DNA of 64,000 nt. Source: a virus. This document shows, piece after piece, positions 1,935-59,915 of the stretch (the stretch's first letter is position 1; each line of letters starts with the position of its first letter). Both the position numbers and the translations under genes were made by a program. The notes under the pieces are model-generated. The model saw only the letters and a list, made by a program, of their open reading frames with translations, had not been told where the DNA came from and did not search any database. Location of the stretch: positions 87,956 through 151,955 of IMG/VR virus record IMGVR_UViG_3300043185_000099; one strand, written 5' to 3'.

Positions 1935-2213
1935 CTAGCGCCCTCCTCCGTGCTTCAACCGCCGCAGTTGGTAGCTGAGGTCATCAATCTGCTTCACGTC
2001 ACGGTCAGCCTGTTGTTGCAGGAGATCGCGTAGCTGGCCGAGCAGCTCGGCGTACCGCTTGAACGTGGTGAGCTGCGCCTTGTCTCCCTCATTCACATGA
2101 CCCTCGTTGCTGACCCACTCACCCACGGGGATTCCGTCGGCGCGGAGACGCTCCTTCACTTCCTCCACCGTCATCTTGGAGACGTCGAAGTCGAATGGGC
2201 TCTTATACTTCAT
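1935..2213 (-). CDS. Small hypothetical phage protein (92 aa, C-terminal coiled coil)
   Basis: ATGA overlap with the 3640-aa gene; tightly packed operon. Confidence 0.75.
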   Translation of the reverse strand: MKYKSPFDFDVSKMTVEEVKERLRADGIPVGEWVSNEGHVNEGDKAQLTTFKRYAELLGQLRDLLQQQADRDVKQIDDLSYQLRRLKHGGGR

Positions 2214-16157: not shown

Positions 16158-19100
16158 TTAATTCCCCTTCGGGTTAGCCTTGTTGAACACGTGAGCGTCT
16201 GGAGGCGGCCCTTCCATGATCTGACCTCGATACCGGCGCTGTTGCAACGCGTGCTGCTCTGCCTTCTTGATGATCTCTTCGTGTTGGAAAGCTACCGCCG
16301 GCTGCTCGCGGGGGTCGACCCCTCCGACAGTCACAAAGTCTGATCGAGCGTACGCAGCGAGGACCACATCCGCGTGCGAGCCCCGGCACACACAGGCCTC
16401 GCCAGCCCTCGCCACCAGGTGGGAAGTAAGGTCCGCCAGTCGATACGCTGCGTTGGAGATAGTGGTCTTGAATACCGAGTTGTTCCCGTAGTTAACTGCG
16501 AAGTTCGCGAAGTTTCGAGCGAATTGGGTGTCCACGATATTGAAAGACCCGGCTTCGATCAGGTTGGGATCATCACCGCTGGCCATGAGGAACGCCCGGA
16601 GCGTGTCTCGGTCCAGGTGCTTTGCGACCACCCCAACATCCCGGAAGGCCGTGACATACGGACGGAGCTGGTCGTCCGTAGGGTCCTCGAAAAGGACAAG
16701 ATCGCTCTCATCACTCTGCGCGTTCTCGAGAGGTTGTTGCTTGCGCCTGAGATCCTCTTGGGCCATCTCGACAGCCGCTTCGCGAGCGCCAGCCAGCTGG
16801 ACATTGTTGGATTTCAGTTTCCCGGCGTACTGCAAGGTCAGTACCCGCAGAAACTCCTCAGCGTTCTGTGCCGTGACATTTTTGAAAGGATCCTGGCCGC
16901 TGTGGAGGAACTCAAACGTGCCTCCCGGATCGACCGTAAGCCCGCGCCCATACCGGAAGGACCCATAGTGATGATAGCCCTTGTCGTCGGATACGGGGAA
17001 CGCCGGGGAGTAGGCGGTCTTGGTGATCTTCCCGTCTTTGACGCTTTTCTCCTCCACAGTGTTGGTGATGATCGCATTCACCACCTTGTCGATACCGACC
17101 GCTTTGCTGATGGCCGAGTTGAAGGCATCCTGGATATTTGTCAGCCTTTCGACCTTGCCTGTGCTCGGGTCCAGAGCGGGGCTCTGTATTTGGTAGAACG
17201 CCTTCTGGATGTCCTGAGACACCACCGCCGCGTAAAGACCAGCCAGGCCATCAATCGTTCTTTGAAGAGACCTGCCGTCGTCCTTCTGTGGGCCTTGTGG
17301 CTTGAGGCCGGGAAACTGGGCCGCCTGCCCCAGCGTGAGTACCGACATCATATACGTGTCGGAGGTTCCCAGTTCCGCGGAAATCTGCTCCTGCAACGAC
17401 GCCGGAAGCGTGGAAGCAGAGAAAATGATGGCGTCGTCGAACGCTCTCAACTCGATTTGCGTGGTGCCGACCTGATCCCCATTCTGGTAAACAGGAATCT
17501 CCACCGAGGCCAGGTCCTCTCCCAGCTGATTGTAGACTTGCAGGAACACATCGGAGACCAACTGGCCAGGGTCATCCACATTCTGCGCTGGCTCAGAAAA
17601 GTTCAAGGCAAGTTGTAGAGTTAGATCCTCCTGATTGAATGCTAAGCGTCCTGAGGTCTGGGACACGCCCACCACACTCGTGAACTTCCCCTTTTCGTGC
17701 CGCACGAAGGAGATAGTCTGGATTTGATCCGTCGAGAGAACTGCGGGCGCCTTCTTGGGACCACTCGCGATCCGAAGACCCTTGCTGCAGGTACCTACTC
17801 CAAGCTCGGCCTCTGGAGGCCGTAGCCCTTCCAGCGTGGTCACCGTAGGCATGAACTGGATGACCTGGCGCCCCGCGGGAAGATCGGCCTCTTCCAACAC
17901 GATGCTTGGAGGATCAGCCTGTTCCTCCCCCACAGCCTGCATTTGCGTCGGCACGGCGACGGGCATGGGCTCCTCCCCCCCACCGGGATCAAGACTCCGC
18001 GCAAGATCAGCGATCGCGTCCGCACGACCGTTGGGAATCAACTTTCGCATCCGCTGCGCAGGCATCTGTAGCTGGCAAAATTCGGCGATCTCCGAAGGCG
18101 ATAACTTCTGCTGGCATAGCTTCTGGTAGTACCGAGCCCGTCGAGCGACATAGCTCCCTCCGTCTGGAACAACCTTACCGTTTTTCATTATGGTAGGCCA
18201 TGCTTCAGTCTTGAGTGTACAACCATCGAGCAAATTGTTGACATCTTCCACGGTGACCGGTTTGATGTCGTCGTTCTGAATCGCTCCACGGAAATTGGAT
18301 GCTCCCCAACCAACGAGGAGTCTGGCATTCATGTATGTCTGTTGGTCCGGCGGCAGCGAACGCCAGATCGAAGAGTTAGTGGCTGACGCCATGTTTTCCA
18401 GGGCGCAAGCAGTTGTCGTTCCCGGGTCAAACAGCGCCTGCCTAGGATCAATGTTGTGGTAAGCACTGTCAGGGTGAGAGAAGGCCGTCATCGCTGTCGT
18501 GGAAAGGAAGCCAAACCATCCGGACGCTCCACAGCCGTTTGGCAACCACGCTTCCTCATCTGACACGTAGGGATTCGCGGCCCACGTGCGTTGGAACTTC
18601 TCGTGTGCTGCTAGAGCCGCCTTCTTGCTCTTGTAGCGGCCGCCTGGTTGCCCGGTGACCCGAGCACGAACTGTCCGGACGGTGAACTGCGCCTCGGCGG
18701 TGCAGTTTTGGGCGGTCGGGTTGAACCCACTCTCGTTCTGCGCCCACACTCTCAAAACTCGCGCAAGGCCCGGGAGATCGAGCTGTTTCTCTAGCCCGTT
18801 GAAGATGGCCAAAGCTCTCGCTTTGTTGGCCTTCCTGTTCGACGCTTTTTGTGGAGCTGGCGTGGGGGGCTTAGTCTGCGGGGGCGTAGGTTTACGCCGA
18901 GGTTGGCGCTGGCCATCATCCCATTTGATCGACGCCATCCCCTGCATGATCGGGTTCGGATGCGCACACGAAAAATACCGGTAGTACCCGGGAATGGAAG
19001 AGGCAACGAACTGATCCTTGAGGTGGGCAAGAGACTCAAACCAAGCGAGGGTCAGATCGGAGCCGGGGATACCGTTGATCTTCCGGCGAATCGGGTTGTT

Positions 19101-27654: not shown

Positions 27655-29001
27655 TTACGTTCCCGGCGCTTTGAACTTGTCGTTCTTGGCCCCACCCTGC
27701 GGATTGACCTGCGGATCGGGGCCGCCGCGCGCGGCCGGCCGATCCAAATCCTGCGTCGGCAGCCGATATACCGGTTTGCCATGGAGCTGCGCCGTCGTGT
27801 CTGGACGGCCCGTGCGGATGGCTCCTGCCCCGGAATCAGCCACAGCATTCCCGACGTTGGCCGCGATTCGAGCCGCGGCCCTCAAACCTCCCGTTCGTGG
27901 ATCCATCGAGGCTGCAACGGGCGCAGCTTGTGGGGCCCCTCGACCCCGTCTCAGCTCCCTTGCTGTCGCCGTGGGATCCGGCATCCCGGCTTCCTGAGCC
28001 CGCTTGGCCTGCTCCTGGCGCGCTCGCTGGCGCTCGTTGTGTTGCTGCCGAAGCAATGCCTGCCGACGAGTCTCAGCCGCTACAGCGGCGTCAGGATCAG
28101 ACGGATCGAAGAATGAATCGCCATCGGCCGGGAGAGGGATACCTTGCCGGTCTGTCTCAACCGGGGGCGGCGCGGGAGCGGAAGTGCCCGATTCGGGAGG
28201 AGCCGCGCTATGCGGGATGGCCGACCGTCGTCCTCCTCCTGGGCTCGACACGGGTTCCTCGGCCCCACCCATCTCCTCGGCCCCACCCATCTCCTCGGCC
28301 CCACCCATCTCCTCGGCGTGAGCATCCTCGAAAGGCTCGCCGATGGTCTCGGCTGCCTCCCCGACCCTCTGGCCACGGGCGACATCCCGCGACCGTTGAA
28401 TCGCATCGCCCATCTTCTGGACCGCGGCCTGTTGCTGTCGCGTTCGATCAGGTTCAGGGGCCTTGGACAGTCTCTCCTTCGCTGCTCGAAGTTCCGCGAG
28501 TCTTCGCTCCACCCGTGCGATCTCATCGTCAAGATCCTGTGGCTCAAACTTGACGGCGGCGCTGGCGGCGATTTCGAGACGTTCGGCCAGCTCGCCGAAC
28601 TTCCCGAACACATGCGTCAGCATGGTGCGCGACCACTCCCTCTCGATCATGTCCCTGATCGCTTCCCACTTCGGAACCGACACCTTCCTCCCCGCCGCGT
28701 CGGTCTCGTCCGTCTCGATGTACTGGACGTCCCGGAGGTCGAGATCCCCGATCTGGATGACGGAGAATCCGAGCGTGGCGTGCCGCATCCGGTCAATGAA
28801 ATCGGCGAAGGCAGCCTGGTCTGCCTCTTCGGTGGGGCTCTCCCCCCACGCGACCTGCGCGTAACGCTGGATCTCCGTTTCCTCGTTTCCTCGGAGGGGA
28901 CGCAGGGTGATCCTCGTACCTCCGGCGTCGAACGAGAATTCGTGATCGCGGATGCGCTCGACTCTGGTGATTGCGGTCTCTAGGGCCTTTAGATTGACCA
29001 T
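27655..29001 (-). CDS. Putative tail assembly chaperone (448 aa; MVNLKALETAIT...) with low-complexity C-terminus
   Basis: ATG at 29001 preceded by a GGAGAG RBS; ITLRPL motif; position after the tube gene. Confidence 0.55.
   Translation of the reverse strand: MVNLKALETAITRVERIRDHEFSFDAGGTRITLRPLRGNEETEIQRYAQVAWGESPTEEADQAAFADFIDRMRHATLGFSVIQIGDLDLRDVQYIETDETDAAGRKVSVPKWEAIRDMIEREWSRTMLTHVFGKFGELAERLEIAASAAVKFEPQDLDDEIARVERRLAELRAAKERLSKAPEPDRTRQQQAAVQKMGDAIQRSRDVARGQRVGEAAETIGEPFEDAHAEEMGGAEEMGGAEEMGGAEEPVSSPGGGRRSAIPHSAAPPESGTSAPAPPPVETDRQGIPLPADGDSFFDPSDPDAAVAAETRRQALLRQQHNERQRARQEQAKRAQEAGMPDPTATARELRRGRGAPQAAPVAASMDPRTGGLRAAARIAANVGNAVADSGAGAIRTGRPDTTAQLHGKPVYRLPTQDLDRPAARGGPDPQVNPQGGAKNDKFKAPGT
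28256..28327. repeat. 18-bp tandem repeat (about 3.5-4 copies) encoding AEEMGG
   Basis: TCCTCGGCCCCACCCATC repeated in tandem within the CDS. Confidence 0.9.
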
Positions 29002-42111: not shown

Positions 42112-43674
42112 TCAATCGACGGACCGGGACGGCTCAATCCCCAAGTCCAGAAGACGACGCCGGAGAAGCTCCTCGTCGAACCCCTTCGGATCTGACTGAC
42201 GTACCACGAGTGTGGCGTATCCCTCCTCCCGAGCCCGTCGCAACTTGAGAAGATCGAGCCGAACGCGACGCTCGAAATTCTCCTGCGTCTTGTGCCAGTA
42301 AGGGATGAACGTCTCGTGTTGTCGTCCGTGAGCCTCGACGAGAAGATTCACGAGCGGGAAATACCCGTCGTAGCGCAGCAGGTAGTTGGTCTCAGGGTTC
42401 CTGATCCGCGTGTCCGTGTACTCCCATTCGTACGCCAGACCGCCGAGGACTGCGGCAACCTTATCGAGCACCGACTTCTGAAAGGCGAGCCGGTTTCGGG
42501 TGAAGAGGCCGAGCTGCCGGCAGTAAATCCGCACAGAAAGCTGAGAGCAATCAAGGTGTTCTGCCGCCATAGCCGTAATGACGCGTCCCTGATCGTCCAT
42601 GAACGGGCGAAGTTCTTCTTCGGTGAGGTCCAAGCGTAGCGCAGTTTTGTCCCTGATGATCGAGTCCGTCGCTACAAGAAGCGCGTCAGGAAAAAGGGTC
42701 TTGTAGGACACCTCTGCGTGAGCGTTCTGGATATGACTGCTCAACGCCTCCGCTTTGTGTCCGCACAGACGACACATGACGTAGGCCTCCGGTTCGGTTT
42801 TGCCTGCCCACTGCGCCTCAACCTGCGCAAGATCTTGAGCACACCGACAGTCATCACAGCGCGTCTCGTGCGTGCTGGGGGCAAGAAACGCCGACACCTC
42901 GTGCAGAACACCGCAGTCTGGACACTCGATCTGTTTCGTGGCCCCAGCATGTGACGAGTGCTCCCACGCCTTGGACTGCGCTTGGGACCTTCGCTCGGTC
43001 AACGCCCGCGCCCGAATCAAAGCACCCCTGTGCTTGGCGCGGTACTCGTCTGCTGTCAACCCATGCGTCTTGAGATGTGTCGCGAGGGTCTCCCCACGAA
43101 AATCACATTCTCGGCATCGCACATAGTCTTCATCTTCGATCTTGTCGACCCACCGGAGATTTTCCTGACCATCCCTCCAGACGCGGTGAGCCTCATCTCC
43201 TGCCGCGCAACAATGTTGAATGTGAGAGGCGAGTCCACGTACTCCCTCGCACCGGAAACCGCAAATTGGACACTCTCGGTCAGGATGTCGTTCGCCCCTG
43301 CACTCCGAGCACATGAGCCGGAGAGATCGAGCGATTGAAACTCGATTCGCCCGGTAGACCTCACCACACTCCGAACACAAGACGGCGATCTCCCCCAGCT
43401 CTCGAGGCCCCGAACGCGCCTGATTGTGCGCGAGGGTCTTACGACGTTGAAGGTCCCGCGCACGTCCCTGCATGAGGGCTTCGCCGAACTCCTCCCGCCA
43501 CCACCGCCTGACAACCGTGAAATGGACCCCCACATGCTCAGCCACGTCCTTGAGCGACTGTTCCACGTGAAACATAGCCACGGCGGCGACTCGTGCTCGG
43601 TCAAGTTCGGCCCCCTTGAGGCGACTCCTCTGGCCGCTCTGGGCTGCCTTTTTACGGGCACGTAAGCCTTCCAT
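42112..43674 (-). CDS. Putative free-standing homing endonuclease: HTH, multiple Zn fingers and a C-terminal PD-(D/E)xK/Vsr-like nuclease
   Basis: Many CxxC...H motifs; LRYDGYFPLVNLLVEAHGRQH...DLLKLRRAREEGYATLVVR. Confidence 0.7.
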   Translation of the reverse strand: MEGLRARKKAAQSGQRSRLKGAELDRARVAAVAMFHVEQSLKDVAEHVGVHFTVVRRWWREEFGEALMQGRARDLQRRKTLAHNQARSGPRELGEIAVLCSECGEVYRANRVSIARSLRLMCSECRGERHPDRECPICGFRCEGVRGLASHIQHCCAAGDEAHRVWRDGQENLRWVDKIEDEDYVRCRECDFRGETLATHLKTHGLTADEYRAKHRGALIRARALTERRSQAQSKAWEHSSHAGATKQIECPDCGVLHEVSAFLAPSTHETRCDDCRCAQDLAQVEAQWAGKTEPEAYVMCRLCGHKAEALSSHIQNAHAEVSYKTLFPDALLVATDSIIRDKTALRLDLTEEELRPFMDDQGRVITAMAAEHLDCSQLSVRIYCRQLGLFTRNRLAFQKSVLDKVAAVLGGLAYEWEYTDTRIRNPETNYLLRYDGYFPLVNLLVEAHGRQHETFIPYWHKTQENFERRVRLDLLKLRRAREEGYATLVVRQSDPKGFDEELLRRRLLDLGIEPSRSVD

Positions 43675-43795
43675 GACGAGCCACCTACACGAAGTAGGAT
43701 GGCTCGTCAATAGAACGGAAGGGCGTGCCTCTGGGCCTCCAACAAGGGCCTTCCAACACGACCCTTAGTTGGATCGAAAATCGTGATTGATTACG

Positions 43796-46700
43796 CTAAC
43801 CTCCGAGATTACTCCGAAGGTTAAACGTGATCACAATATACAGCAAAGGGAACACAGGTTGGTAGAACGCCTCCACCTCCACCACGGTCGGATCGTTCGT
43901 GGTGCGCGCCTGCACGCCCGTGTAGGCCGCGATGATCTCGGCGTTCTTGAGAGACTTGAGCGTGGTGCTGAGCTGGCCCTCGATCTCGGACAGGACGCCA
44001 GGCAGGAACTTGATGCCGATGAACCTGTCGAGGTCACGACGCGACGCTCTCTGAACCTCGTCGGCGATCGTGATGACCGTCGGAAGCTTCGTGAGGATGT
44101 TCGACATATCGGTCGTGAGTCCTTGACGGACTCGGATGACCGTGCCGCGCTGCTCCATGACCGTCACGCCCTGCACGGCGACCTGATTCTGCTCCACAGC
44201 GTCCAGCTTGCGTGCCAGCTCATCGAACCCGACGATCCGAGCCCGCGTCCAAGGCGTCGCCACGTCGATGTTCGGTGAAGCCCTGTTGCCCGCCATGGCG
44301 GCCGCGAGGTAGGTGCCGTCCACCAGGAACTGCTTGAAGTTCCCAAGAGCGTCCTGGATCGTAAGCGTCACGATGTCCGGGTAGACCAGGCGGATACGGG
44401 TGTTCTGGATCTGCTGCGCGATCCCCCCGACGTCCGTGGGCTGCGTGCCCGAAGACACGCCAATGATGCCGGTGCGCTCCGCCCTGAACCTGATGCTGGA
44501 CTGGATGTCGCAGTGGTTGCTGAGGGAGAGGAAGAGGTCCACATCGTCGCCCCGCAGGGGAGTGATCGTGTCGAGGACCGCTCCGCCAGGCAGAGCACCG
44601 CGGAGATCGTTGAGCGCGTCGATGTAGCTTTGCGTGCTCGCCTGGTTGCTCCCCGGGATCTTTGGCACCTGCTTGATCCCGAGGACCACAGCCCCGTTGA
44701 GGAACGCGAGGAACCCGGCGAGCGAAACCGGATTGTCAGGCGTCGTGTCGCCGTAGTTCCGCTCCACGGCCCTCTGACTCGTGAACAGCATCGTCTCGAA
44801 GTCGGCGGCCGTCTTCGCGTAGTTGTATGTCACGAAGTAGGAGTCCCCGACGGCGGGCTCCTGGCCACCGCGGTCGAAGGTCTCGACGATAGCCGTGTCG
44901 CCCTGCGGGATCGAGGATCCCTCGGTGTTCGCTACGGTCATCTCGAGCCCGGGGATCGAGTTGACGGGAATGTTCGCGTCCGTTGTGACCAGCTTGCGAA
45001 CCTGGAACGTGAAGGACGCTCCAGCCCCGGTCGGGTAGTCGGCGCCTCCCGTACGTGGCAGGATCGTGAACACGAGTCCGGTGACCGTGTCGCGGTAGCT
45101 CTGGCTGATCATCCCATCCTGGCCCACGCCGTTGTTGAAGCACGACGTGTTGGCCGAGCCCGACCCGTCGACGGGGTCGCTGCTCGTGACGAAGAAGCCC
45201 TGGAACCCGGTCTCGCCCGCGGCTCCCTGACCGCTCGTGACCCCGAGTCCGGTGCCCGTGAGCAGCCAGTCAGCCGTGGTCGCGGTGTCGAACAGGATGT
45301 TCGAGGATGAGCCCAAGCCGACGATGTTGTTGGCCTGACTCTCGATGAACAGGAACTCGCTGGCCGTCAAGTCGCGCTCGACCCCTGCGAGTGCCTGCGC
45401 CGCGAAGAACGTCAGGTCGGGTGCCTGGTAGTCCAGGATCGCCCCGTTAATCGTCGAGCTGTGGTGCATCATCAGGGCCGACGCGACCAGCTCTGGATCG
45501 ACCGTCGAACGCGCTGCTGTGGCCCCCTCGGAGAACCCAAGCACGTTGTTGGCGTTGCCGTTGCCGATCGTGATGGCCGAACTCGGAGTCACCACGGAGC
45601 TGACGAGACGGATGCTCGCCCCCTCCTGCGCGACCACGGAGGCCGGAAGGCCCGCCCCGACCGCGGCATTCTGGATCTGCCGGAGCACGGTGTTGGCGAT
45701 CGAGATCGGACCCAGAGGAACGTCTGCTTGACCCGCCGCCGGGATTGCTGCCCCGGTGGCGTCCCGGAACACGACGGTGAATGCCGTACCGTCGATGTTC
45801 ACCTTCCAGACGTTGTTCTGGGGGTTCACTCCACCGGAAGCGTAGAATCGAACCCTCGGCTGTCCGTCGCGCGCATCCGCGAACGTGCCCGCTGCGACCT
45901 GTCCGTCCTTGAACCCGACTTCGCCGACCAGAGACGCGGGCCGGAGAGTGGCTTCGATGCCAGCGAGACCCACAGCCTTGGCCGCGAGACCCGTCTCCGT
46001 CGTAGCGTTCGTGCCCTGAACGATCAGATTCGTGCGGTCGACCTGACTCTGCGGCTCGAGAGAACCGGAACCCGGCAGGATTCGGTTTCGCATGATGATC
46101 CGGTCGTAGACCAGGCGACCGGAAGCCCCGGAGACCGTGAAGCGACGAGCGATGTCACCGTCCACGACCTTCGTCTGTTCCTGGCCGGGCAACGCGTCGG
46201 TCGAGAGACCACACAGGATCGCGAAGTCCTCAGCGACCGTCGCGGCATCAAGGAACTCCCACACACCGCCGCCGAGGCCAGAACCGCCCGTAAGCGTCGC
46301 ACCGGACACCGGCAGACGGATCGCCGTCGAGCTGGCCAGGGTGATGAAGTTGCCCGAGGGGCCCGGAACGGCAGCCGTGATGTCCACGACAGCCGACGTA
46401 CCACTCGAATTGTCCGCGGTAACGATGCCCACGAGGCCATTGCCAGCATCGGAGATCGCCGCAACGATCGAGGTGGCCACCTGGACGGTGGTCCCCCCTC
46501 CGGCGAAACTCGCGCCGGATACCGGCAGGCGCACGCCCGTCGACGAGGCGATCGTGTAGGTGTTGCCGATCACGCCCGGGGTGTCCGCCCAGACCGTGAC
46601 CGTCGTGACCGTTCCCCCCTCATTGTCGGCCGTCACCGCGGCTGCGAGGCCGTTGCCGGCATCGTTGATGGCAGCAACGATGCTGCTGGCCACTGTGAGG

Positions 46701-49700
46701 TTGGTGCCAATACCACCCGCCAGCGTGGGGCCGCTGGTGATGAGTCGTGTCGCGCTACTCGACAGGAGGACGATCGTGTTCCCCGCGTTCCCCGGTGTCA
46801 CCGCCGTGACAGTCACGACATCGAGGACGACGCCGGTGAGGACGAGTGCCGGGAGAGAAGCGACGATGGACGCTCCGAGGGACGTCGCCACGGTGGTGTC
46901 GTCACCGATGCCACCGAGCAGGGTGCCGGCGGAGAGGGTGATCCTCGTGGCGCCGGTAGACTCCATCAGTGTGATGCCGTTGCCGACGAGGCCGGGAGTG
47001 AATGAGTCAATGTCGACGACGTTCGACGCGCCGCCAGAGTTGTCGGCAATGACCCCTCCGACAAGACCGTTGCCAGCGTCAGCGATCGCCGCCACGAGGC
47101 TCGTTGCCGCTGAGATGTCGTCACCCACACCACCCGTGAGTGTTGCGCCGCTAAGAGTGAAGCGACCGGGAGCGGTTGTGCTGAGGGTGAGCAGGTTGCC
47201 GACCGCGCCGGGCGTGACAGCCGTGAGCACGAGCGTGGTCGCGCCCGAGGACGTGGCCGTAACGTCCACCGCGAACGAGTTGGCCACGTCGTTGACGGCC
47301 GCGAGTGCGTCGTCACGCGCCGACGTATTCGTGCCCAGGCCGCCCGCCAGCGTCGCGCCGGTGAATGTGAGGCGCGCCGGTGCGGTCGAGACGGTCGAGA
47401 TCGAGTTACCGCCGGTGCCGGGAGTAATCGCCCGGATGTTCACGATAGCCGACGTGCCGCCCGTGTTGTGTGCCTGCACGGTGCCGGTCATGCCGTTGAG
47501 CGGATCGAGGATCGCCGCGACGATCGCCGTCGCGGTCGTGATCTCGGTTCCGACACCGCCGCCGAACGTCGCCGGGATCGTCACGGTGCCGTCGGAGGAC
47601 AGGTTGGCGACGGCGTTGGCCGCCATGCCCGGAACCGTCCAGGTGGCGGTGACGTCAGCAGGACCGGGACCAACCGCGGCGCTCGAGAAGGCTGCGAACG
47701 AGTTGAGCGGGTCGTTGAGTGCCGCGGCGATGTCCGCGGCGATGGCTGCCGTCGTGCCGAGTGTGTTGTCGTAGTCGTCTGCGCCCGGCGTGCGAGGTCC
47801 GCCTGCCGGGGTCAAGACGTACGGACCGCCCGCGATGGCGCCCGTATCGATCGTGATCGTCGCCGACGACGGAGATGCCGTCACGGTGATGAGAGCCGTC
47901 GCTTGTGTGCCAGCATCGAAATTCAGACCGCCGGGCGTGGTGACATCGTCGGCCGTGAGCGGGATGCCGGCGATGGTGATCGTGTCGCCGTAGAGCACAC
48001 CTGTGCTCGGGAGCGCCGTCACGACCACGGTCAGCATCGTGGTGGCGCGAACGCCGGCGTTGAAGTCGTCGGCACCGGAGGTACGAGCGACATCGACGGG
48101 CGTGAGCACGTTGCCGTTGATCGTGACCGTGTCCGCCGCCACGACGGGATACGGAGCGGCCGAGGCCACGCGGACGCCGCTGAAGCCGATCGTGCCCGTA
48201 GCCGCGGTCCCGACGTTAAAGTCGAGGCCACCCGGCGTCTGCGTGTTGCTGGCCGTCAGCGTGACAGGACCACCACCCACGACCGACGTGTCGATCGTGA
48301 TTGTGTCGCCGTACTGGACCCCCGTCAGGGTCGCCGTTCCATCGGCTCGCGTCCCGACATCAAACTGATTCGCGGCCGGGACTCCTTCGACGCCTGTGAA
48401 GACCTGACCGTCAACGGTAACCGTGTCACCGGGGATGGGCCCCGAAACCGTGATCGTTCCCGTGGCGCGTGTGCCCTCATTGAAGTCGAGGCCACCAGGC
48501 GTCTGTGATCCAAGCGCGGTGATGACGATCGGGCCGCCGCCGGCATCAATCGTGAACGTGTCACCTGGCTGGACACCCATCGGAATGAGGGTCGCCCTCG
48601 CCTGTCCCGTGTCGAAGTTCTGGTCGCCCGTCGTTTGGGCGAGATCACCCGTGAGGGTCACGCCGTCGATCGTGATCGTGTCCCCGATGACCGCGAGCGC
48701 CGACGTCACCGTGCCGGTGGCGAACGTACCGAGGTCGGTCGGAGTACCCGAGAACGTGAACCGAAGCTGTCCGTCGGAGTTCGCCGTGGTGGTGATGTCC
48801 ATCCCGGAGAAGACGGCGGGGAGAGCCCCAATGGCTGTCTGCAACGCTGAGTCGACTGCGGCCGCCAGGGTCGTCGGCGACGTGTACGTTCCGGGAGCGA
48901 TCGTGGCCGTGACAGGCCCCGTGGTCCCGCTGGTCACGCCCGCATAGTTGAAGACGAGCTTGTCGTAGCGTCCCGCGGTGATCGTGAGCGATCCGAGGAA
49001 CCGTGTCGTCCCATCGAGGAATGGGTTGTTGGCCACGAGCTTCGCCTCGGCGTTGATCGCCTCGACGTAGGCATCGGCGTCCACGGCCGTCTGGGACGGG
49101 ACGATGGTCGTGATGACGACCCCGTCCACTGTGAACGACACGTTGTCGTTGATGCCGCTCAGGATGTCGTAGGTCGTCTTGCCGGAGTCGTCGGTGTACT
49201 GAATCTCCTCACCGAGCAAGCTCGCGTAGAACCCGAGTCCCGCGATCCCATGCGGTGCGGAGAGATCGATGCCCGCAGCGCCGCCCGCCAGAGCGGAACT
49301 GTCGATGGTGAAGCGGGCGCGATCCGAGGCCCCAGAGACGAAGAAGTACGGACCCGCACCGGGCACCGTGAACTTCGCGATGGTGGCGTCCTTTTCCGCG
49401 AACTGCACGGTGACCGTCTCTTCGACGGGGCCGGATGTGCCTCCTTCGAAGTGCACGTCGGGGGTGAGTTCACTGCCCGACGGGAACTCGATCGTGACGC
49501 CCGTGAGCGCGGGACCCTTGCTCCCGAACTTCGGCGTGTAGATCGGGTTGCCGTTCTTGTCGAACAGGAAGTACGTGCCGATCCCAGACGGTCCGCTGGT
49601 CTCGACTTGGACCGTGTACTCCTCGTCGACCATGATGTTGTACCAGAAGGTAGCGAACACGGTCGCGCCGACGGGCACGGGATCCTTGAGCGTGATGACG

Positions 49701-51238
49701 GTTCCCTCGACCTTCGTCACCGCCACCGGGCCACGGTTGAGTGCGTCCTCGGATCCGAATCCCCAGTATGCCTTGACGAGATTCGGGTTGTTCGTCGGGA
49801 GGTCGATGCGGTTGTTCGAGACTGACAGGAACACATCCTGCCCCAGCGGCGTGTCGCGGCCGTTGCCGGTCGTCGGCTGCACCGGCAGCTTGAACTGGAG
49901 GCGGTTCTCGACGGCTGGAATCACCGTGTCGTCCACCACCGGCTCGGCCTCGGCCAGGAACCAACGATTGTCGATCAGGAGACCCGAGATCTGCGTCGGT
50001 CCGAACGGAGGGGCTCCCGGCGTGGTGATTCCTGGGGAGACCAGGAAGGCCGCTCCCCAGACAATCAGGTCGTCCTTGAGAACGAAATCGGCTCCCTCAA
50101 TGAAGTCGCTGTTGCCCGGCACGATGCCGCAACGGATGACCTCAGTGACATTGATGTTCGCGAGGTAATCGAACGTGTCCTGCCACGTGTTGAAGAAGTA
50201 CTGGATCGTGACGGTGTCGCCGACCGCCGGGGCGAAGGGCAGCGTCACGGCTCTGTTCTGGCCATCGACCTCCGTCGGAATGACCTGGACCGAGTTGACA
50301 CGCACAGTCACCTTCGACGTGTCAGTCGTGGTGATGCCGCCGTTTGAACCGTCGACGATAGGCCCGTTGAAGGTGAAGAACGTGCGGTTCCGACGCGTGT
50401 TCTGGTTCTGCGTGAAGCCGAGGACCGAGTTGGCCGTGCCGTTCCCGATCAGGAGATCGTTGTCGGCAACAAGGCGCACCGCCGTGAGACCGAAGTTATT
50501 GGTGTAGGTCGACGCCACCAGCGACGTGCCAGCCGCAGCCCCGTTGATCAGGGAGACCACCGTAGCGGCCGTGACGCTGCCGGTGGGGAACGTGGCGGTC
50601 ACAACCTGCTGCGTGGTTGCCGACTGATCGAAGTCCACCGTCACGATGAACTGGTTGTTGGAGGAGGTGAACTCGTAGGCGTTGCCGAGGGCCCCCTCGA
50701 GAATCGCTCCCTGCGTGGACACCTGGTTGGACAGGTTGTCTGTGGTCTGTGTGTCAGTGCGCTTGAAGAAGTAGGTGACCCGCACGTCATCGCCGAAAAC
50801 CGGCGCCGTGCTGATCTCGATCACGCCGATGTCGGCGCGAGCCACGCTCAGCACCACGTCGGGGCGGCCATTGATGGTGACCAGGATCGAGCTGGGATCG
50901 GTCGCCGTCCGACCCGCCCCCGACCCGTCCGTGATCGGGTAGTTACGGACCTGGATGCGGCGGCGCTCTCCGTTGAAGTCTCCGAGGATGACCTCGCCGG
51001 TCATCGTGATCTCCACGACGGCTCGACCGGTCTCGTCCTCCTGGGGGACCTGCTGGTCGACCGAGCTGCTTGAGCCACGGATGACCTCCAGGTCCTGTTG
51101 CTGGAGCAGCTCGTTGCCCGTCCCGATCAGCACTGGGATGCGGACGCCCGCGAGCACGCCCGAGACCGGGCTGTCGAAAAGCGTGCGGGTGTACACGCCC
51201 GGCGGGCTGTAAATGGTACCTGGAAAATCAGCGGGCAT
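43796..51238 (-). CDS. Contractile tail sheath protein, giant (2480 aa), with large domain insertions
   Basis: N-terminal YSPPGVYTRT; C-terminal sheath motifs (VRQGLTTD...TIADEV...DPTVVEVEAFYQPVFPLLYIVITFNL). Confidence 0.9.
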   Translation of the reverse strand: MPADFPGTIYSPPGVYTRTLFDSPVSGVLAGVRIPVLIGTGNELLQQQDLEVIRGSSSSVDQQVPQEDETGRAVVEITMTGEVILGDFNGERRRIQVRNYPITDGSGAGRTATDPSSILVTINGRPDVVLSVARADIGVIEISTAPVFGDDVRVTYFFKRTDTQTTDNLSNQVSTQGAILEGALGNAYEFTSSNNQFIVTVDFDQSATTQQVVTATFPTGSVTAATVVSLINGAAAGTSLVASTYTNNFGLTAVRLVADNDLLIGNGTANSVLGFTQNQNTRRNRTFFTFNGPIVDGSNGGITTTDTSKVTVRVNSVQVIPTEVDGQNRAVTLPFAPAVGDTVTIQYFFNTWQDTFDYLANINVTEVIRCGIVPGNSDFIEGADFVLKDDLIVWGAAFLVSPGITTPGAPPFGPTQISGLLIDNRWFLAEAEPVVDDTVIPAVENRLQFKLPVQPTTGNGRDTPLGQDVFLSVSNNRIDLPTNNPNLVKAYWGFGSEDALNRGPVAVTKVEGTVITLKDPVPVGATVFATFWYNIMVDEEYTVQVETSGPSGIGTYFLFDKNGNPIYTPKFGSKGPALTGVTIEFPSGSELTPDVHFEGGTSGPVEETVTVQFAEKDATIAKFTVPGAGPYFFVSGASDRARFTIDSSALAGGAAGIDLSAPHGIAGLGFYASLLGEEIQYTDDSGKTTYDILSGINDNVSFTVDGVVITTIVPSQTAVDADAYVEAINAEAKLVANNPFLDGTTRFLGSLTITAGRYDKLVFNYAGVTSGTTGPVTATIAPGTYTSPTTLAAAVDSALQTAIGALPAVFSGMDITTTANSDGQLRFTFSGTPTDLGTFATGTVTSALAVIGDTITIDGVTLTGDLAQTTGDQNFDTGQARATLIPMGVQPGDTFTIDAGGGPIVITALGSQTPGGLDFNEGTRATGTITVSGPIPGDTVTVDGQVFTGVEGVPAANQFDVGTRADGTATLTGVQYGDTITIDTSVVGGGPVTLTASNTQTPGGLDFNVGTAATGTIGFSGVRVASAAPYPVVAADTVTINGNVLTPVDVARTSGADDFNAGVRATTMLTVVVTALPSTGVLYGDTITIAGIPLTADDVTTPGGLNFDAGTQATALITVTASPSSATITIDTGAIAGGPYVLTPAGGPRTPGADDYDNTLGTTAAIAADIAAALNDPLNSFAAFSSAAVGPGPADVTATWTVPGMAANAVANLSSDGTVTIPATFGGGVGTEITTATAIVAAILDPLNGMTGTVQAHNTGGTSAIVNIRAITPGTGGNSISTVSTAPARLTFTGATLAGGLGTNTSARDDALAAVNDVANSFAVDVTATSSGATTLVLTAVTPGAVGNLLTLSTTAPGRFTLSGATLTGGVGDDISAATSLVAAIADAGNGLVGGVIADNSGGASNVVDIDSFTPGLVGNGITLMESTGATRITLSAGTLLGGIGDDTTVATSLGASIVASLPALVLTGVVLDVVTVTAVTPGNAGNTIVLLSSSATRLITSGPTLAGGIGTNLTVASSIVAAINDAGNGLAAAVTADNEGGTVTTVTVWADTPGVIGNTYTIASSTGVRLPVSGASFAGGGTTVQVATSIVAAISDAGNGLVGIVTADNSSGTSAVVDITAAVPGPSGNFITLASSTAIRLPVSGATLTGGSGLGGGVWEFLDAATVAEDFAILCGLSTDALPGQEQTKVVDGDIARRFTVSGASGRLVYDRIIMRNRILPGSGSLEPQSQVDRTNLIVQGTNATTETGLAAKAVGLAGIEATLRPASLVGEVGFKDGQVAAGTFADARDGQPRVRFYASGGVNPQNNVWKVNIDGTAFTVVFRDATGAAIPAAGQADVPLGPISIANTVLRQIQNAAVGAGLPASVVAQEGASIRLVSSVVTPSSAITIGNGNANNVLGFSEGATAARSTVDPELVASALMMHHSSTINGAILDYQAPDLTFFAAQALAGVERDLTASEFLFIESQANNIVGLGSSSNILFDTATTADWLLTGTGLGVTSGQGAAGETGFQGFFVTSSDPVDGSGSANTSCFNNGVGQDGMISQSYRDTVTGLVFTILPRTGGADYPTGAGASFTFQVRKLVTTDANIPVNSIPGLEMTVANTEGSSIPQGDTAIVETFDRGGQEPAVGDSYFVTYNYAKTAADFETMLFTSQRAVERNYGDTTPDNPVSLAGFLAFLNGAVVLGIKQVPKIPGSNQASTQSYIDALNDLRGALPGGAVLDTITPLRGDDVDLFLSLSNHCDIQSSIRFRAERTGIIGVSSGTQPTDVGGIAQQIQNTRIRLVYPDIVTLTIQDALGNFKQFLVDGTYLAAAMAGNRASPNIDVATPWTRARIVGFDELARKLDAVEQNQVAVQGVTVMEQRGTVIRVRQGLTTDMSNILTKLPTVITIADEVQRASRRDLDRFIGIKFLPGVLSEIEGQLSTTLKSLKNAEIIAAYTGVQARTTNDPTVVEVEAFYQPVFPLLYIVITFNLRSNLGG
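46280..48725 (-). repeat. Nested repeat array in the sheath: 7 domain N-halves followed by 7 domain C-halves
   Basis: Seven ATGT..GDTITI..F(D/N)xG units, then seven A.S.VAAI.D..N...TPG..GN...GATL.GG units. Confidence 0.85.
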
Positions 51239-51239
51239 G

Positions 51240-52070
51240 TCAGCGTCCTTTCAGTACGACGTAGTCGTCGACAGAAATCCTTGTGAAGTGGAATCCTTGA
51301 CACGGAGTTCCACGGCGAATCGACTTCGCTACGGCATCAGAAGACAACCCAAGAATTTTGGCTGCTTCGGAGGCCGATGAGAACACGCAACCATCGGATC
51401 GGCGAACGGGGTTTGCGTTGCTTTCTCGGATGCGGGTCTTGTGCTCTTCGGAGAAAAGCCGTCCCTTGTGGGCGGCACTCATCTTGGCGCGCGTATCTTC
51501 CGAAACGGTGCGGCCAGTGTGAGCCGCCACCATCCGTTCCTTGCTCTCTACGGAATGACGCCGATCCTTCCAGAATTCGCCCCGACCGCGCTCCAAATTC
51601 AAGAGCTGTTGCGGCAACATTCCACGTTTCTTCGCTGACGCCGACATCTTCGCGCGAGTGTCAGCATTTGCGACAACCCCGGCACCACCCTCCGTCAAAT
51701 TGTAGCCGTGGGCCCGATCCGAGGACCGGTAGAGGGCAATGTAGGACTGCTCACGCTCATTGGCTTTCTCCAAGGTTGGGATGCCCTCCTCAAGCGTCTC
51801 CCAGACCATGGCGCACCTGTACTTGCGCAGCGCAGCGGCAAAGTGACGATTCTTCCCAACCCGTGCAAGATAGTGATGTTCCACTTTGCGAGCTTTGAGT
51901 GTGCGCCCAGTGATCCCGACGTAAACCTTCCCGCTCGGCGACGTGGCCTTGTACACCACGTACGTCGCGTCATCCGCGGGACGCGCCCCCCCGCTCGCGC
52001 TCGACTCGGACGAGGAGTGCGTCGCATCTGGCCACGGGGTCACCGTGACGAGTTCGTTGGTCTGGAGCAT
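51240..52070 (-). CDS. GIY-YIG homing endonuclease with NUMOD3-like repeats
   Basis: VVYKATSPSGKVYVGIT...R...GYNLTEGG; repeats HSVESKERM, SEDTRAKMSAAHKG, SEEHKTRI; C-terminal FSSASEAAKILG. Confidence 0.9.
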   Translation of the reverse strand: MLQTNELVTVTPWPDATHSSSESSASGGARPADDATYVVYKATSPSGKVYVGITGRTLKARKVEHHYLARVGKNRHFAAALRKYRCAMVWETLEEGIPTLEKANEREQSYIALYRSSDRAHGYNLTEGGAGVVANADTRAKMSASAKKRGMLPQQLLNLERGRGEFWKDRRHSVESKERMVAAHTGRTVSEDTRAKMSAAHKGRLFSEEHKTRIRESNANPVRRSDGCVFSSASEAAKILGLSSDAVAKSIRRGTPCQGFHFTRISVDDYVVLKGR

Positions 52071-52347
52071 CGAGGTCGGCTATTCGCTCGGGATCTCTCC
52101 CGTCTGTCGGGCGCACGTCTCCTGAGAGCGTGTTAGGCCCTGGGTGCAGTCGCGGATCGCGCTCGTGGAGCGCCTTGGTTCACGTCTCCGTGCCCGTCTC
52201 CGTCAGTCTGTCGGTTCACGTCTAGCCGTCCCCTCGCGGGGAGGAAGCATTCTGCGGGCCTGCTAGGCAGGTTGGTTCACATCTCGTCTGTCCGTCTGGT
52301 CACGTCTGGGTCCTCCGAGTGGGGAGGCCGGGTGTGCGACTGTCGCC
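52071..52347 (-). promoter_or_regulatory. Structured non-coding leader 2 (hairpin plus AGACGTGAACC repeats)
   Basis: AGA(C/T)GTGAACC at 52177-87, 52213-23 and 52274-84, with a variant at 52298-307; hairpin CC-TCCCC-GCGA-GGGGA-C-GG at 52226-52244. Confidence 0.6.
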
Positions 52348-52812
52348 TCAGCGAGCAGCCTCCTCGGAGGAAGCGCCACGGCGCTCCCTCCAAACCTTGT
52401 ATCGGTGCATGACCTCCTGGTTGACGATGCGGGCCCTCTTGGCGGCCCGGCGCTCATCCGGGGTCATGACGAAGTATTCACCGCCGTCGAGCCGGCTGAG
52501 GTGCTCCCCTGTCGTCCCTTCCGCGGCGATCACGCGGCGCTTGTAGTCCTGGCGACGTTGGAACTCCCGCAGATTGGCTTCCGCGCTACGCCCGATGACG
52601 ACATCGACATCGTGATCCACCGAACTCGCCCCGGTGTTCTGTGGAGCAGGAGCATCAGGCACGTGAGCGAACTTGAAACCCGGGGTCGAGAGCCGCCTCT
52701 CGGCCGGATCGCCGCATCGCTTGCAGGAGAGGGTGTCCTTGACCTTCCCAGATGGCTGCATTGTCCCGAAGCGCAGACCGCAACTCGGGCACTGGTAATC
52801 GAAGATCGGCAA
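52348..52812 (-). CDS. FmdB-like zinc-ribbon protein (154 aa)
   Basis: TTG start; MPIFDYQCPSCG...CKRCG...AERRLS. Confidence 0.8.
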   Translation of the reverse strand: MPIFDYQCPSCGLRFGTMQPSGKVKDTLSCKRCGDPAERRLSTPGFKFAHVPDAPAPQNTGASSVDHDVDVVIGRSAEANLREFQRRQDYKRRVIAAEGTTGEHLSRLDGGEYFVMTPDERRAAKRARIVNQEVMHRYKVWRERRGASSEEAAR

Positions 52813-52907
52813 GGCGGGGGTTCCGTCTACTTGGCCCGCCCTATAGCTCAAGTATCGGAAACCGGGCCCGAAACGCGGACTTCGTTGGACCGGCAGCTTC
52901 CGGGCTC

Positions 52908-54243: not shown

Positions 54244-56328
54244 CTATTCCTCGTCGTACTCTTGGAGCGCCTGGACGAGAAGTCCTCGTGCCACGGCCTC
54301 CAGCGGGTCGCGGGCCGCACGGATTTCGCTGACCTCGATCGGGTAGCGCTTCCGCTTCTCCTCGAACACCTTCTTGAAGAACTCCAGGAAGCCCGCGGCC
54401 TTGCTTGTCCCGCCCGAGACGACGATTGGGATGGCCTGCGGGAGCGCGAACCTGCTGCGGATCTTCTCAAACTCGATCGCGATCGTGTCGAGCGTGTACT
54501 CGATGAGGTTCTTGTAGTAGACGACAAGCGCCTCCTGTTCGCGGTCCGACGGACGCAGGAGGTCGAGTCCCTTCTCCTTGATTGCGCACATGCGGGCCTG
54601 CGTAGAGCCGACGCTCCTCGCGGCCCCGGCATCGATCCAATCTCCGCAGTTGTGAACGATCATCCCGGGCGACGAGAACGAGTGGTGCGACGATGCCACG
54701 CGGATGTCGTAGACTTTGCTCCCGTACTCGACGACGTTGACCGAGCGAACGCGGTACGTGACAAAGTCGGGAAAGTCGTCGAACACCTGAGTCCCCTCGC
54801 ACGCGATCATCGTGTCGAGGAGGTTTTTCGCCACATGGCCGCAGATCTTGATCTCATAGCACGGTTTTCTGCCCTCGATCCTGACACCGCGCGAGTTGAG
54901 TCCTCCAACGCGTGGCTCCCTCTTGACGATAGAGTGTCCGACTCCAAAACGGTTCAAAAGATGATGCGCCAGCATCACAACGGGGAGCGACGTGTTCGTG
55001 ATCGTGTGGCGCTTGGCCTCCTCGTGAGAGTCGCTGTCGAGGAGACCCTGAACGATCCCGAGGGCCATCTGATTGCCGATTTTGGATGGGTCGAGGGGGC
55101 ACGTCTTCACGCCGTGCTCGTCGTAGAACCGCTCCTTGAAGTGCCGTGCCACCGGGGTGATGTGGAGCTTGATGCGAGTGAGATTCTCGGCCGGATCATC
55201 GACGATCTCCACTTCGCGATGGAACAGGCGAAAGCAGATGTCCGCATACGCCTCGACCAGATGTTGGTCTCTGCAATTAACTGCGATCTGGACATGTGAA
55301 GGGTCCTCTGCGTGAGGACCGCACGATCCGTCCCCGAGGAACATGCCGAACAAACGTCCGAGGGACCTGGCTCCCGCCACGCAGATCTGGTTCCCGAATG
55401 AGTAGCCGCTGCCGCTGTCCCGGGCCGACAAGATTGTGGGAACCCCCACGTCGTCGCCCTCGCGGAGGGAACCGGCCTCGACCCACTCCCAGCCGAACCT
55501 GCGACGCACGAAGACGCGGTGATCGTGGGTCAGCCGATGTGGAAACCCGGGCAAATTCTCCAGGACAACCTCAACGAGAGAGTCCCTGTGGCCATTCTCC
55601 AGTTTCTCGGTGACGGCCACGAAGTTTCCGTGCGCATCGAGTACCTCATCCCCTTCGCGGAGATTCTCCATGGTAGCGAGACCATGTTTCGTCACGACGG
55701 GGAAGTCTCCGGCGAGGCAGCGACCGACGCTCGCGGTAAACCCCTCGACCGTGTTGATCGCCAGCGCGATGTTCGTCATCCCAGCGCCGTAGCTCAACGC
55801 CAGCCCGCTGAACCCTTCTTTGGCGCACTCGGAGTAGACGATGGCCATGGCCTCATTGCCGGGGACTGCACGGTAGCCGCACTCCTCGATGATCCTCTGG
55901 AGAACTCCTCTGTGGTAGACGACGTCGCGCGAGGGATCGTCCACCGGCGCAGCAGGCACGCTGAAGCAGCAGACCTCGCGCTCCTCGACAGGATCACCCA
56001 GGACGTGGCGAATGATGACGCCGAGGATCTCGAGAGCATCGATCTCTCCCGCCGACACGAGGCCCGACTGGAGCGGACGCCGGACCTCCGTCCCGAACAT
56101 GTTGGCCATGTTGTAGGCCGCGTCCCCCACAATTACAAGCCGGTCCCCCCTCTCCACGTAGTTGACGTTGGAGAGGCGGAGCATCTTCCGGTGCTCGCGA
56201 GGGAAGTCAATGAAGGCGTCGCGCATCCTGGTGGTGACGACACCCTCGCTAGTGCGACGTGCCGACACGACATTCATGGTGCCCAGGTCGAGGCCGACGC
56301 CGGGAATCAATCCTTCATATTCTGCCAT
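54244..56328 (-). CDS. Actin/MreB-like ATPase precursor containing an intein (694 aa; about 337 aa spliced)
   Basis: GLDLGTMN (phosphate 1), FSVPA, NEAMA, SYGAGMTN (phosphate 2), VVSGGTS (adenosine), AVARG. Confidence 0.85.
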   Translation of the reverse strand: MAEYEGLIPGVGLDLGTMNVVSARRTSEGVVTTRMRDAFIDFPREHRKMLRLSNVNYVERGDRLVIVGDAAYNMANMFGTEVRRPLQSGLVSAGEIDALEILGVIIRHVLGDPVEEREVCCFSVPAAPVDDPSRDVVYHRGVLQRIIEECGYRAVPGNEAMAIVYSECAKEGFSGLALSYGAGMTNIALAINTVEGFTASVGRCLAGDFPVVTKHGLATMENLREGDEVLDAHGNFVAVTEKLENGHRDSLVEVVLENLPGFPHRLTHDHRVFVRRRFGWEWVEAGSLREGDDVGVPTILSARDSGSGYSFGNQICVAGARSLGRLFGMFLGDGSCGPHAEDPSHVQIAVNCRDQHLVEAYADICFRLFHREVEIVDDPAENLTRIKLHITPVARHFKERFYDEHGVKTCPLDPSKIGNQMALGIVQGLLDSDSHEEAKRHTITNTSLPVVMLAHHLLNRFGVGHSIVKREPRVGGLNSRGVRIEGRKPCYEIKICGHVAKNLLDTMIACEGTQVFDDFPDFVTYRVRSVNVVEYGSKVYDIRVASSHHSFSSPGMIVHNCGDWIDAGAARSVGSTQARMCAIKEKGLDLLRPSDREQEALVVYYKNLIEYTLDTIAIEFEKIRSRFALPQAIPIVVSGGTSKAAGFLEFFKKVFEEKRKRYPIEVSEIRAARDPLEAVARGLLVQALQEYDEE
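54649..55719 (-). mobile_element. Intein (357 aa) with LAGLIDADG homing endonuclease
   Basis: Begins CLAGDFPV; block B LTHDHRVF; LFGMFLGDG and VQGLLDSDS; ends VYDIRV...IVHN followed by Cys+1. Confidence 0.92.
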
Positions 56329-56382
56329 GTCGATTCCTTGTGCATGTTCGACCGCCGCGACGAGCACGGGGACACCCCCATC

Positions 56383-59320: not shown

Positions 59321-59689
59321 CTAGCTGGGAGGGGGACCTCCCGCCTCATTCTGGCGTGCTGCGGGCGGTGTGACCAGTCGGATCGTCCCATCGGCCAGAG
59401 CGACCCACTGTTGGCCGTCCTGGACGCCCAGACGACGACTGATGCTGTTGATGATCTCCTGCATCCGGCGTTCGATCTCGTCAAGCTGTCCGAGAACACG
59501 GACTTTGCGCACTTCGTGCTCGCCGATCTGCTGGAGAAGCCTTGTCGATTCCTGGCGCAGCGTCTGGATCGCCGTCTGCTCCTCGGGAGAAAGGCGTCCG
59601 AGGTTGCCCGGAATCTCGGGGGTCTCTGGGGTTGCCGTGGTCTGCTCTTCGGTCTCCATGGTTTCCTGCATTGTGTCGACTCTACCCAC
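59321..59689 (-). CDS. Hypothetical coiled-coil protein (about 120 aa)
   Basis: Coupled ORF within the operon. Confidence 0.65.
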   Translation of the reverse strand: MGRVDTMQETMETEEQTTATPETPEIPGNLGRLSPEEQTAIQTLRQESTRLLQQIGEHEVRKVRVLGQLDEIERRMQEIINSISRRLGVQDGQQWVALADGTIRLVTPPAARQNEAGGPPPS

Positions 59690-59915
59690 CGCCGGGTTCC
59701 TCGTCGGTCTCTTCGTCGATCAGGTAGCGGCGGAGGGCTCTCAGCTCGGCCAGGTAGTTATCGAAGTGGGTCCCCACTCGGTCCCCCATCTTCATCGTGT
59801 GCGAGTGGGTCACAACCGTGGGCAGCTTCTCAAACGACCAGAACGTGACTCCATCCTGATTCGTGTACTCGTACACGCGAACCCCCCGACCAACGGCAGC
59901 GTTTCGCTCCGTCAT
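59682..59915 (-). CDS. Hypothetical protein (77 aa)
   Basis: ATGA-coupled ORF. Confidence 0.65.
   Translation of the reverse strand: MTERNAAVGRGVRVYEYTNQDGVTFWSFEKLPTVVTHSHTMKMGDRVGTHFDNYLAELRALRRYLIDEETDEEPGGG

Follow-up and report, generated by a model that had tools for sequence, protein, structure and literature searches.

Two related non-coding leaders in the tail gene region of a large phage: a candidate cis-regulatory RNA element

What could be the role of two intergenic gaps of nearly the same length that share one motif and precede different genes of a phage tail region? Gap A (nt 52071–52347, 277 nt) and gap B (nt 29002–29277, 276 nt) lie in the window, i.e., the whole 64-kb stretch of DNA analysed, which has a GC content of 62% and forms the terminal part of a 151,955-bp IMG/VR record. 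The minus strand carries almost all genes of the window and is the sense strand of both gaps; on it lie all leader parts and genes of the window for which coordinates are given below. CheckV estimated the record to be 29% complete, which corresponds to a full genome of about 0.5 Mb. A blastn search against 50,697 GenBank phages gave no match, and relatives retrieved with the N-terminus of the sheath protein include records of 618,736 and 536,053 bp. Ribosome binding sites (AAGAGG, GGAG) were of the bacterial type.

The two gaps and their neighbouring genes

A sequence-only reading of this DNA had pointed to two gaps of about 277 bp with a common motif, and both were found as described. The 31-nt pattern CCTCCC-N6-GGGACGG-NN-AGACRTGMAC had two exact matches in the window, at nt 52214–52244 and 29084–29114, both on the minus strand, and none in 100 shuffles, even with 2 mismatches allowed. 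The hairpins at nt 52226–52244 and 29096–29114 indeed shared the same stem and bulged C, with a swapped closing pair and differing tetraloops, and the four AGAYGUG(A)ACC repeats ascribed to gap A were located at nt 52298–52307, 52274–52284, 52213–52223, and 52177–52187. AGAYRTGAAC occurred four times in the 64-kb window (0.44 expected), always on the minus strand and within gaps A and B. Across both strands of the 152-kb record, the density of AGAY peaked at gap A with 13 per 280 nt, against a background mean of 2.3 (sd 1.6). An AGAY-rich stretch at nt 59453–59732 was coding sequence and not a leader, as was the case with L053.

Gap A is bounded by the stop codon (TGA, nt 52350–52348) of an FmdB-type Zn-ribbon gene (PF09723, nt 52348–52815, start approximate) and the ATG (nt 52070) of a homing endonuclease gene (nt 51240–52070), which is situated between leader A and a giant tail sheath gene (nt 43796–51238, 2480 aa; phrog_2839 tail sheath, 4.7e-29, C-terminal 500 aa). 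The placing of this leader upstream of a sheath operon was thus right as to the sheath gene downstream, but the gene directly after gap A encodes a GIY-YIG/NUMOD3 homing endonuclease. This protein possessed the domains PF01541, PF07460, and PF20987 (phrog_314 at 1e-25), that is, a GIY-YIG catalytic domain, NUMOD3, and DNA-binding modules of the I-TevI type, and its gene showed the presence/absence polymorphism of such endonucleases: among nine distinct high-GC orthologs of the locus, only the window and its closest relative, L004, carry it, and it is absent at the same site in L008–L017. The sheath ribosome binding site, AAGGA, falls within the 3′-end of the endonuclease gene, the stop codon of which nearly abuts the sheath ATG. 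The sheath protein has the usual FPG..Y.PPGVY start; its last ~360 residues matched ordinary sheath families, and the rest, except the short N-terminal motif, had no family match. Right after it, a 532-aa gene (nt 42112–43710) encodes a ROS/MucR zinc-finger region and an HNH-endonuclease-like C-terminus (phrog_559); with the homing endonuclease on the other side, the sheath gene is flanked on both sides by endonuclease-type genes.

Leader A as a whole, a non-coding leader with covarying structure conserved in nine distinct orthologs, covers nt 52071–52362. Hairpin H0 (nt 52340–52358) spans the Zn-ribbon stop codon. Nucleotide conservation, third positions included, extended into the final codons of the Zn-ribbon gene (GAGGCUGCU.., nt 52348–52362, and orthologs), which make up the 5′ arm of a hairpin with the stop codon in its loop; the window and L004 have compensating changes in both of its arms. 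Just after this stop lies H1 (CCUCC-loop-GGAGG, nt 52312–52327), in which 4 of 6 pairs had two-sided changes among orthologs. It is followed by array 1 (nt 52274–52311), with eight GAY/GAA triplets starting 4–6 nt apart and including AGACGUGACC and AGAUGUGAACC, the longest such chain in the 152-kb record. H2 (CCUGC-cua-GCAGG, nt 52259–52271) was recognised by eye, with CUCC/GGAG, CCGC/GCGG, and GCUC/GAGC in orthologs, and was left out of the formal pair count because MAFFT misaligned the region. The core hairpin H3 (CC-UCCCC-GCGA-GGGGA-c-GG, nt 52226–52244) has a 1-nt bulged pyrimidine on its 3′ side, the same fold being found in 20/20 clade sequences. Downstream of it are array 2 (nt 52177–52225), a run of GAY/GAA triplets with two AGACGUGAACC repeats; H4 (GCGCUC-cac-GAGCGC, nt 52159–52173), with 100% of cells paired and GCCCGC/GCGGGC in ortholog L014; the 3′ arm (GCGACUG, nt 52147–52153) of a proposed long-range helix, P1, whose 5′ arm is CAGUCGC at nt 52336–52342 (91.8% of cells paired, mostly invariant); and H5 (nt 52109–52140), in which an outer GGGC/GCCC stem encloses CUC-ucag-GAG (helices 5 and 6 of the pair count).

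Leader B, the paralogous copy (nt 29002–29277), lies between the stop codon (TAG, nt 29280–29278) of a 263-aa gene and the ATG (nt 29001) of a 448-aa gene (nt 27655–29001), and was examined in an alignment of six orthologs. At its 5′-end is a terminator-like GC hairpin with a UCUUUG tail (nt 29208–29232), the U-tract of which was clearer in relatives; the window copy did not pass a simple terminator scan. At a place equivalent to that in leader A, this leader holds its own long-range helix, predicted by RNAalifold and in the centroid structure and invariant in the six orthologs, between GAGCAAUCGGUGG (5′ arm, nt 29187–29199) and CCACCGACUUGCUC (nt 29023–29036). Array 1 (AGACGCAGACAUGAACGUGAACCAGAUGGGGAC, nt 29145–29177) is a chain of six triplets, part of which RNAalifold paired with nt 29042–29056. 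H3 (CC-UCCCG-CUCG-CGGGA-c-GG) occupies nt 29096–29114, array 2, with AUGUGAA at its end, nt 29058–29095, and H5 (CUCCAC-loop-GUGGAG) nt 29006–29025 (stem 29008–29025), the stem being invariant and the loop varying in length and sequence. The Shine-Dalgarno sequence of the 448-aa gene, GGAGAG (nt 29006–29011), is on the 3′ arm of H5, and the 5′ arm of H5 overlaps the long-range helix. Downstream of the 448-aa gene come genes of 407 and 979 aa, the latter having a weak tape-measure match. Neither the 448-aa nor the 263-aa protein had a match in Pfam, PHROGs, or PDB, and a language model used in the search for their identity gave a weak lead to Phage_TAC_1 (0.75). The 448-aa gene had earlier been called a tail chaperone; it belongs to no family recognisable in the three databases, and that label rests on its position.

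Besides these genes, two more giant ORFs (nt 2210–13132 and 16158–21518, 3640 and 1786 aa), without Pfam match, were found in the tail region. A Volactin-family actin-like gene (PF25216, 5.8e-64; nt 54244–56367), split by an intein with a LAGLIDADG endonuclease, is located two to three genes upstream of leader A. A tRNA at nt 37865–37940 (60 bits in Rfam) sits within a serine-integrase element; ARAGORN gave it a four-letter anticodon, ‘ctac’, and did not name its type; it could be an amber-suppressor-like CTA tRNA or one whose anticodon loop is enlarged.

Conservation, covariation, and copy number

Gap A was kept in ~20 related IMG/VR contigs. The gene order Zn-ribbon, a gap of ~260–280 nt, and sheath is maintained in the relatives carrying the leader, and the synteny of Zn-ribbon and sheath genes holds in all relatives, leader-less ones included. 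Nine distinct high-GC orthologs could be aligned across the entire gap A, and in seven of them the leader passes directly into AAGAGGU and the sheath ATG. In L014 (nt 3812–3997; identical to L023), the endonuclease site between leader A and the sheath ATG is occupied by ~200 additional non-coding bases, perhaps a remnant or a different insert. When the window was compared with the more distant orthologs, the sheath gene next to the leader was saturated at four-fold synonymous sites (35–51% identity), whereas leader A shared 58–67% identity, with 50–54% in shuffled controls. Since the leader remained alignable where neighbouring four-fold sites were saturated, gap A is under purifying selection. 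A shorter leader with the same core was present in clades further removed (L025; the low-GC group L028–L034; L033 of the 536-kb record).

The predicted secondary structure varies as expected of base-paired RNA. On an alignment made by MAFFT without fitting to structure, RNAalifold predicted H1, H3, H4, the nested 3′ hairpin pair H5, and a long-range helix in which GCGGUCGC, close to the upstream stop, pairs with GCGACUGC ~190 nt downstream (210 alignment columns). Over the 33 predicted pairs, 90.5% of cells were paired, versus 38–54% when partners were slid by 1–3 columns, and G-U accounted for ~8% of paired cells. Double changes were observed at 11 pairs versus 4.2 ± 1.5 in shuffles, none of 500 shuffles reaching 11. 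Fold z scores against shuffles were −1.95 for the sense and +0.31 for the antisense strand. The pairs of H3 were counted from folds of the individual sequences, because MAFFT could not place this hairpin in common columns. All 20 sequences, of types A, B, and C (see below), had two closing C-G pairs, a bulged C or U on the 3′ side, and an upper stem of 4–5 bp, with no common pair broken; the loops were 3–6 nt long and of arbitrary, unrelated sequence across the 20 copies. Double compensatory changes occurred at four stem positions (U-A to C-G, C-G to U-A twice, and C-G to G-C), and the low-GC clade had CC-GCC-loop-GGC-u-GG, the same bulged design with other letters. The structure predicted by RNAalifold for the low-GC clade was ambiguous because of little variation there. 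The long-range helix was nearly invariant within each type and did not exceed shuffles in any single sequence, a helix of such length not being unusual in GC-rich sequence. Between the window and L004, 2 of the 22 differences fell within the 74 columns assigned as paired, and both form the apical pair of H1, which is non-standard in the two sequences. Base-pair covariation was thus well above controls, in agreement with the RNA-level selection that the sequence-only reading had suspected.

A covariance model, R1, for which only the 3′ halves of the nine sheath leaders were used, retrieved gap B with 19 bits (E = 0.003 over 239 kb) as the only other match in the 152-kb record, so that the model from orthologs of one copy finds the other. 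In the records of five relatives, it detected the main copy plus two or three weaker matches, all on the same strand, which sorted into two further types, B and C. Orthologs of gap B are located 11–14 kb downstream of the sheath leader in relatives and 23 kb downstream in this window, where mobile DNA lies between the two leaders and accounts for the larger spacing. In type C, a terminator-like hairpin is followed by H3 and by ~35 nt of triplets that cross the ribosome binding site, start codon, and first codons of a DUF5659 gene; by synteny, the type C copy of this phage would fall beyond the record end. The DUF5659 protein encoded after type C (L054:7762–8019, in G004; one copy each in G001–G003) is very strongly conserved, with more than 120 clusters at 57–92% identity, many of them on contigs of 100–600 kb. 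As regards the coordination of tail genes proposed for the two copies, the third member precedes in relatives this DUF5659 gene and no known tail gene.

In the 92%-complete 618-kb relative, GGRAYGGYCARA had exactly three matches, corresponding to types A, B, and C. A strict H3 pattern gave 22 matches in 2.9 million IMG/VR contigs, 21 of which were such leaders; the six matches in 185,579 prokaryote genomes were all chance occurrences inside genes. These counts indicate that the element is specific to this phage clade, with three loci per genome, and it is not a general late promoter. Rfam 15 at gathering thresholds recognised only the tRNA in the whole window, and for both gaps at E up to 10 it returned miRNA-type noise of 13–17 bits or nothing; hence no known family matched either gap. 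Full-text literature searches returned no description of the element. Conservation, covariation, retrieval of the twin copy by the model, and the lack of an Rfam match together uphold the earlier proposal of an undescribed cis-acting structured RNA family.

Within a looser pattern of GAC/GAU/GAA triplets, the AGAYGUGAACC repeats stand out as the most regular portion. Triplet starts spaced by 4, 5, and 6 nt were counted 32, 27, and 32 times, versus ~6 each in shuffles (z = 9–11), in sequences that are related and hence not independent. Of five chains of at least six triplets in the 152-kb record, three are in gaps A and B on the sense strand. U is strongly depleted in the leaders (9% in gap A). 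The words are loose (CARAY, GAAAC, GAC), adenines being their most conserved letters. In the low-GC relatives (36–44% GC), the words retained were those containing G/C, such as ACAGACGAAC and CCGAUAGAC, and not A/U-rich ones, which argues for sequence-specific reading over a mere lack of structure.

Possible modes of action

We give about an even chance to the reading that gaps A and B are paralogous copies of a clade-specific cis-acting mRNA leader bound by an RNA-binding factor. The leader would be transcribed with the minus-strand genes and fold into a multi-hairpin domain, in which the invariant core H3 (CC-UCCCC-loop-GGGGA-c/u-GG) would be flanked on both sides by U-poor, single-stranded GAC/GAU/GAA runs, the whole domain probably being closed by the long-range helix. 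We infer that both the bulged hairpin and the triplet runs are bound by an oligomeric RNA-binding factor; docking would then set the translation and/or stability of three virion-module transcription units, i.e., those of the sheath, of the 448-aa gene that precedes the putative tape measure, and, in relatives, of the DUF5659 gene. In leader B, the ribosome binding site hairpin may compete with the long-range helix and thus act as a simple on/off switch. The presence of the leader B ribosome binding site in an invariant hairpin and the extension of type C triplets over the start region favour control at translation. Leader A, however, is intact in the two genomes in which a ~0.9-kb endonuclease gene precedes the sheath start (the window and L004), which is awkward for direct occlusion of the sheath ribosome binding site. 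As this argues against a purely local mechanism, the main rival of a protein-bound leader is an elongation signal like nut, put, or TAR.

According to that rival, which we consider rather unlikely, the nascent hairpin and linear motif would affect RNA polymerase, either directly or by recruiting a factor to it, so that it could cross terminators over very long virion genes. Three copies per ~620-kb genome, as with nutL/nutR or putL/putR, tolerance of the 0.9-kb endonuclease gene inserted ahead of the sheath gene, and downstream genes of 7.4 kb and longer would suit such a signal; so would the position of leaders B and C directly after terminator-like hairpins, which leaves no room for a promoter and places both leaders in read-through transcripts. 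These terminators, however, are upstream of the leaders and not downstream, the H3 loops vary in sequence and length as boxB does not, no Rfam match to known antitermination RNAs was obtained, and both the triplets over the type C start codon and the sequestered leader B ribosome binding site point to translation. The further alternatives are less likely than an elongation signal. One, which we hold to be unlikely, is a constitutive enhancer without a dedicated reader, in which GAC/GAA runs that do not pair with themselves would serve as a ribosome standby site or S1 landing pad and the hairpins would shield the mRNA from nucleases. The extreme depletion of U in gap A, the position ahead of an abundant virion protein, the loose conservation of the words, and the negative search for a reader (TRAP, CsrA, and DUF5659, below) are consistent with it, but the low-GC relatives keep their G/C-containing words, the bulge and stem sequence of H3 are conserved far beyond the need of a generic stabiliser, and only three genes per genome carry the element.

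Would the repeats rather act in DNA, as sites bound by a phage-specific polymerase or transcription factor in a promoter or operator? They are direct, oriented, and upstream of genes, and a scan for sigma-70-type promoters found none in gaps A and B, so that an unusual promoter could exist. Compensatory stem changes together with loops of 3–6 nt, however, keep a hairpin and not a fixed DNA spacing; G-U pairs are tolerated, the structure spans ~220 nt, and the first conserved helix follows the upstream terminator with no space left, which makes a DNA element quite improbable. A leader peptide or uORF attenuator, with the GGGGA arm of H3 as the ribosome binding site of a tiny frame 7–13 nt downstream, seems scarcely credible: an AUG, GUG, or UUG does occur 7–13 nt past H3 in most type A and B copies, but the frames range from ~7 to ~29 codons with unrelated sequences, are absent from L014, all type C copies, and the low-GC clade, and the conserved word is CARAY, not AUG.

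Candidates for the factor of a protein-bound leader were sought in the phage records G000 and the 92%-complete G001, the near-complete relative being 618 kb. Among these phage records, to which the search was confined, TrpBP (PF02081)/TRAP gave no match, with a control genome positive, and CsrA (PF02599) gave none either. The Zn-ribbon gene was rejected as reader, being present in L019 and L035, where the leader is absent, and DUF5659 was rejected as an autoregulated reader, since distant DUF5659 genes lack the leader; its alignment-based model (pLDDT 71; the single-sequence model, with pLDDT 49, was not usable) showed no fold match at E ≤ 0.001 and no known RNA-binding fold. A more specific version, that a dedicated oligomeric protein reads the bulged hairpin and GAY arrays in exactly three leaders, as a TRAP-like but independently evolved post-transcriptional regulon of huge phages, is put forward tentatively, as a possibility we would not bet on; such a regulon, if true, would balance the output of sheath, tail-assembly, and DUF5659 proteins during virion assembly.

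Almost nothing is known about the timing and balance of virion gene expression in half-megabase phages. The element has a simple signature, is under clear purifying selection, and marks exactly three virion-region transcription units, of whose products the sheath is the only one identified. It offers a handle for finding the regulator by RNA pull-down or co-occurrence, could aid annotation of late operons in uncultured megaphage contigs, and could add a family to RNA databases; the endonuclease insertion between leader A and the sheath gene provides a natural test of local versus distant action.

Comparison with known RNA elements

TRAP operators of Bacillus (trp leader, trpG, and trpP) consist of (G/U)AG triplets, 2–3 nt apart, wound round an 11-mer ring. 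The leaders described here resemble them in that 3-nt words separated by short variable spacers form strand-specific runs within 5′ leaders, that a genome has several unlinked targets, and that the runs overlap the start region at some targets and lie far upstream at others, where they could act via alternative RNA structures. In contrast to the 9–11 (G/U)AG triplets of a TRAP operator, the words are GAC/GAU/GAA with 1–3-nt spacers, 6–8 per run and successively spaced by 4–6 nt; moreover, a conserved bulged hairpin is an obligatory partner here, and the phage records contain no gene of the TrpBP family. In CsrA/Rsm leaders, GGA is displayed in hairpin loops and CsrA is present, whereas here GGA was not conserved in the arrays, the word ACGUGAAC of the window being AUGGAAAC in relatives.

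With the lambda nut (boxA plus boxB hairpin) and HK022 put RNAs, the element shares a short hairpin with an adjacent conserved linear motif and a few copies per phage genome in transcripts that must cross terminators. The lambda N protein reads the loop of boxB. The conserved pentaloop of boxB has no equivalent in the H3 loops of 3–6 nt, unrelated in 20 copies; in addition, the leaders are located after terminators, not before them, and their long triplet arrays have no counterpart in nut or put. Neither does the element have the GC-rich hairpin and U-tract of an intrinsic terminator, H3 being followed by GGYCARAY and H1 by ACCCAGAC, and a simple terminator scan found none in gap A.

Operator hairpins of the MS2 and PP7 coat proteins provide translational control of a phage gene, and H3 resembles them as a small hairpin with a conserved single bulge at a fixed distance from its base. 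These operators have a purine bulge, a loop of specific sequence, and the start codon within the hairpin, whereas H3 has a pyrimidine bulge on the 3′ side, a free loop, and a position 40–150 nt upstream of the start. Thus, TRAP, nut/put, and bulged coat-protein operators resemble the element in logic only, each failing in a defining feature that was tested, and the element is best described, from its sequence, as a putative structured cis-regulatory leader, or a candidate repeat-array leader RNA read by protein.
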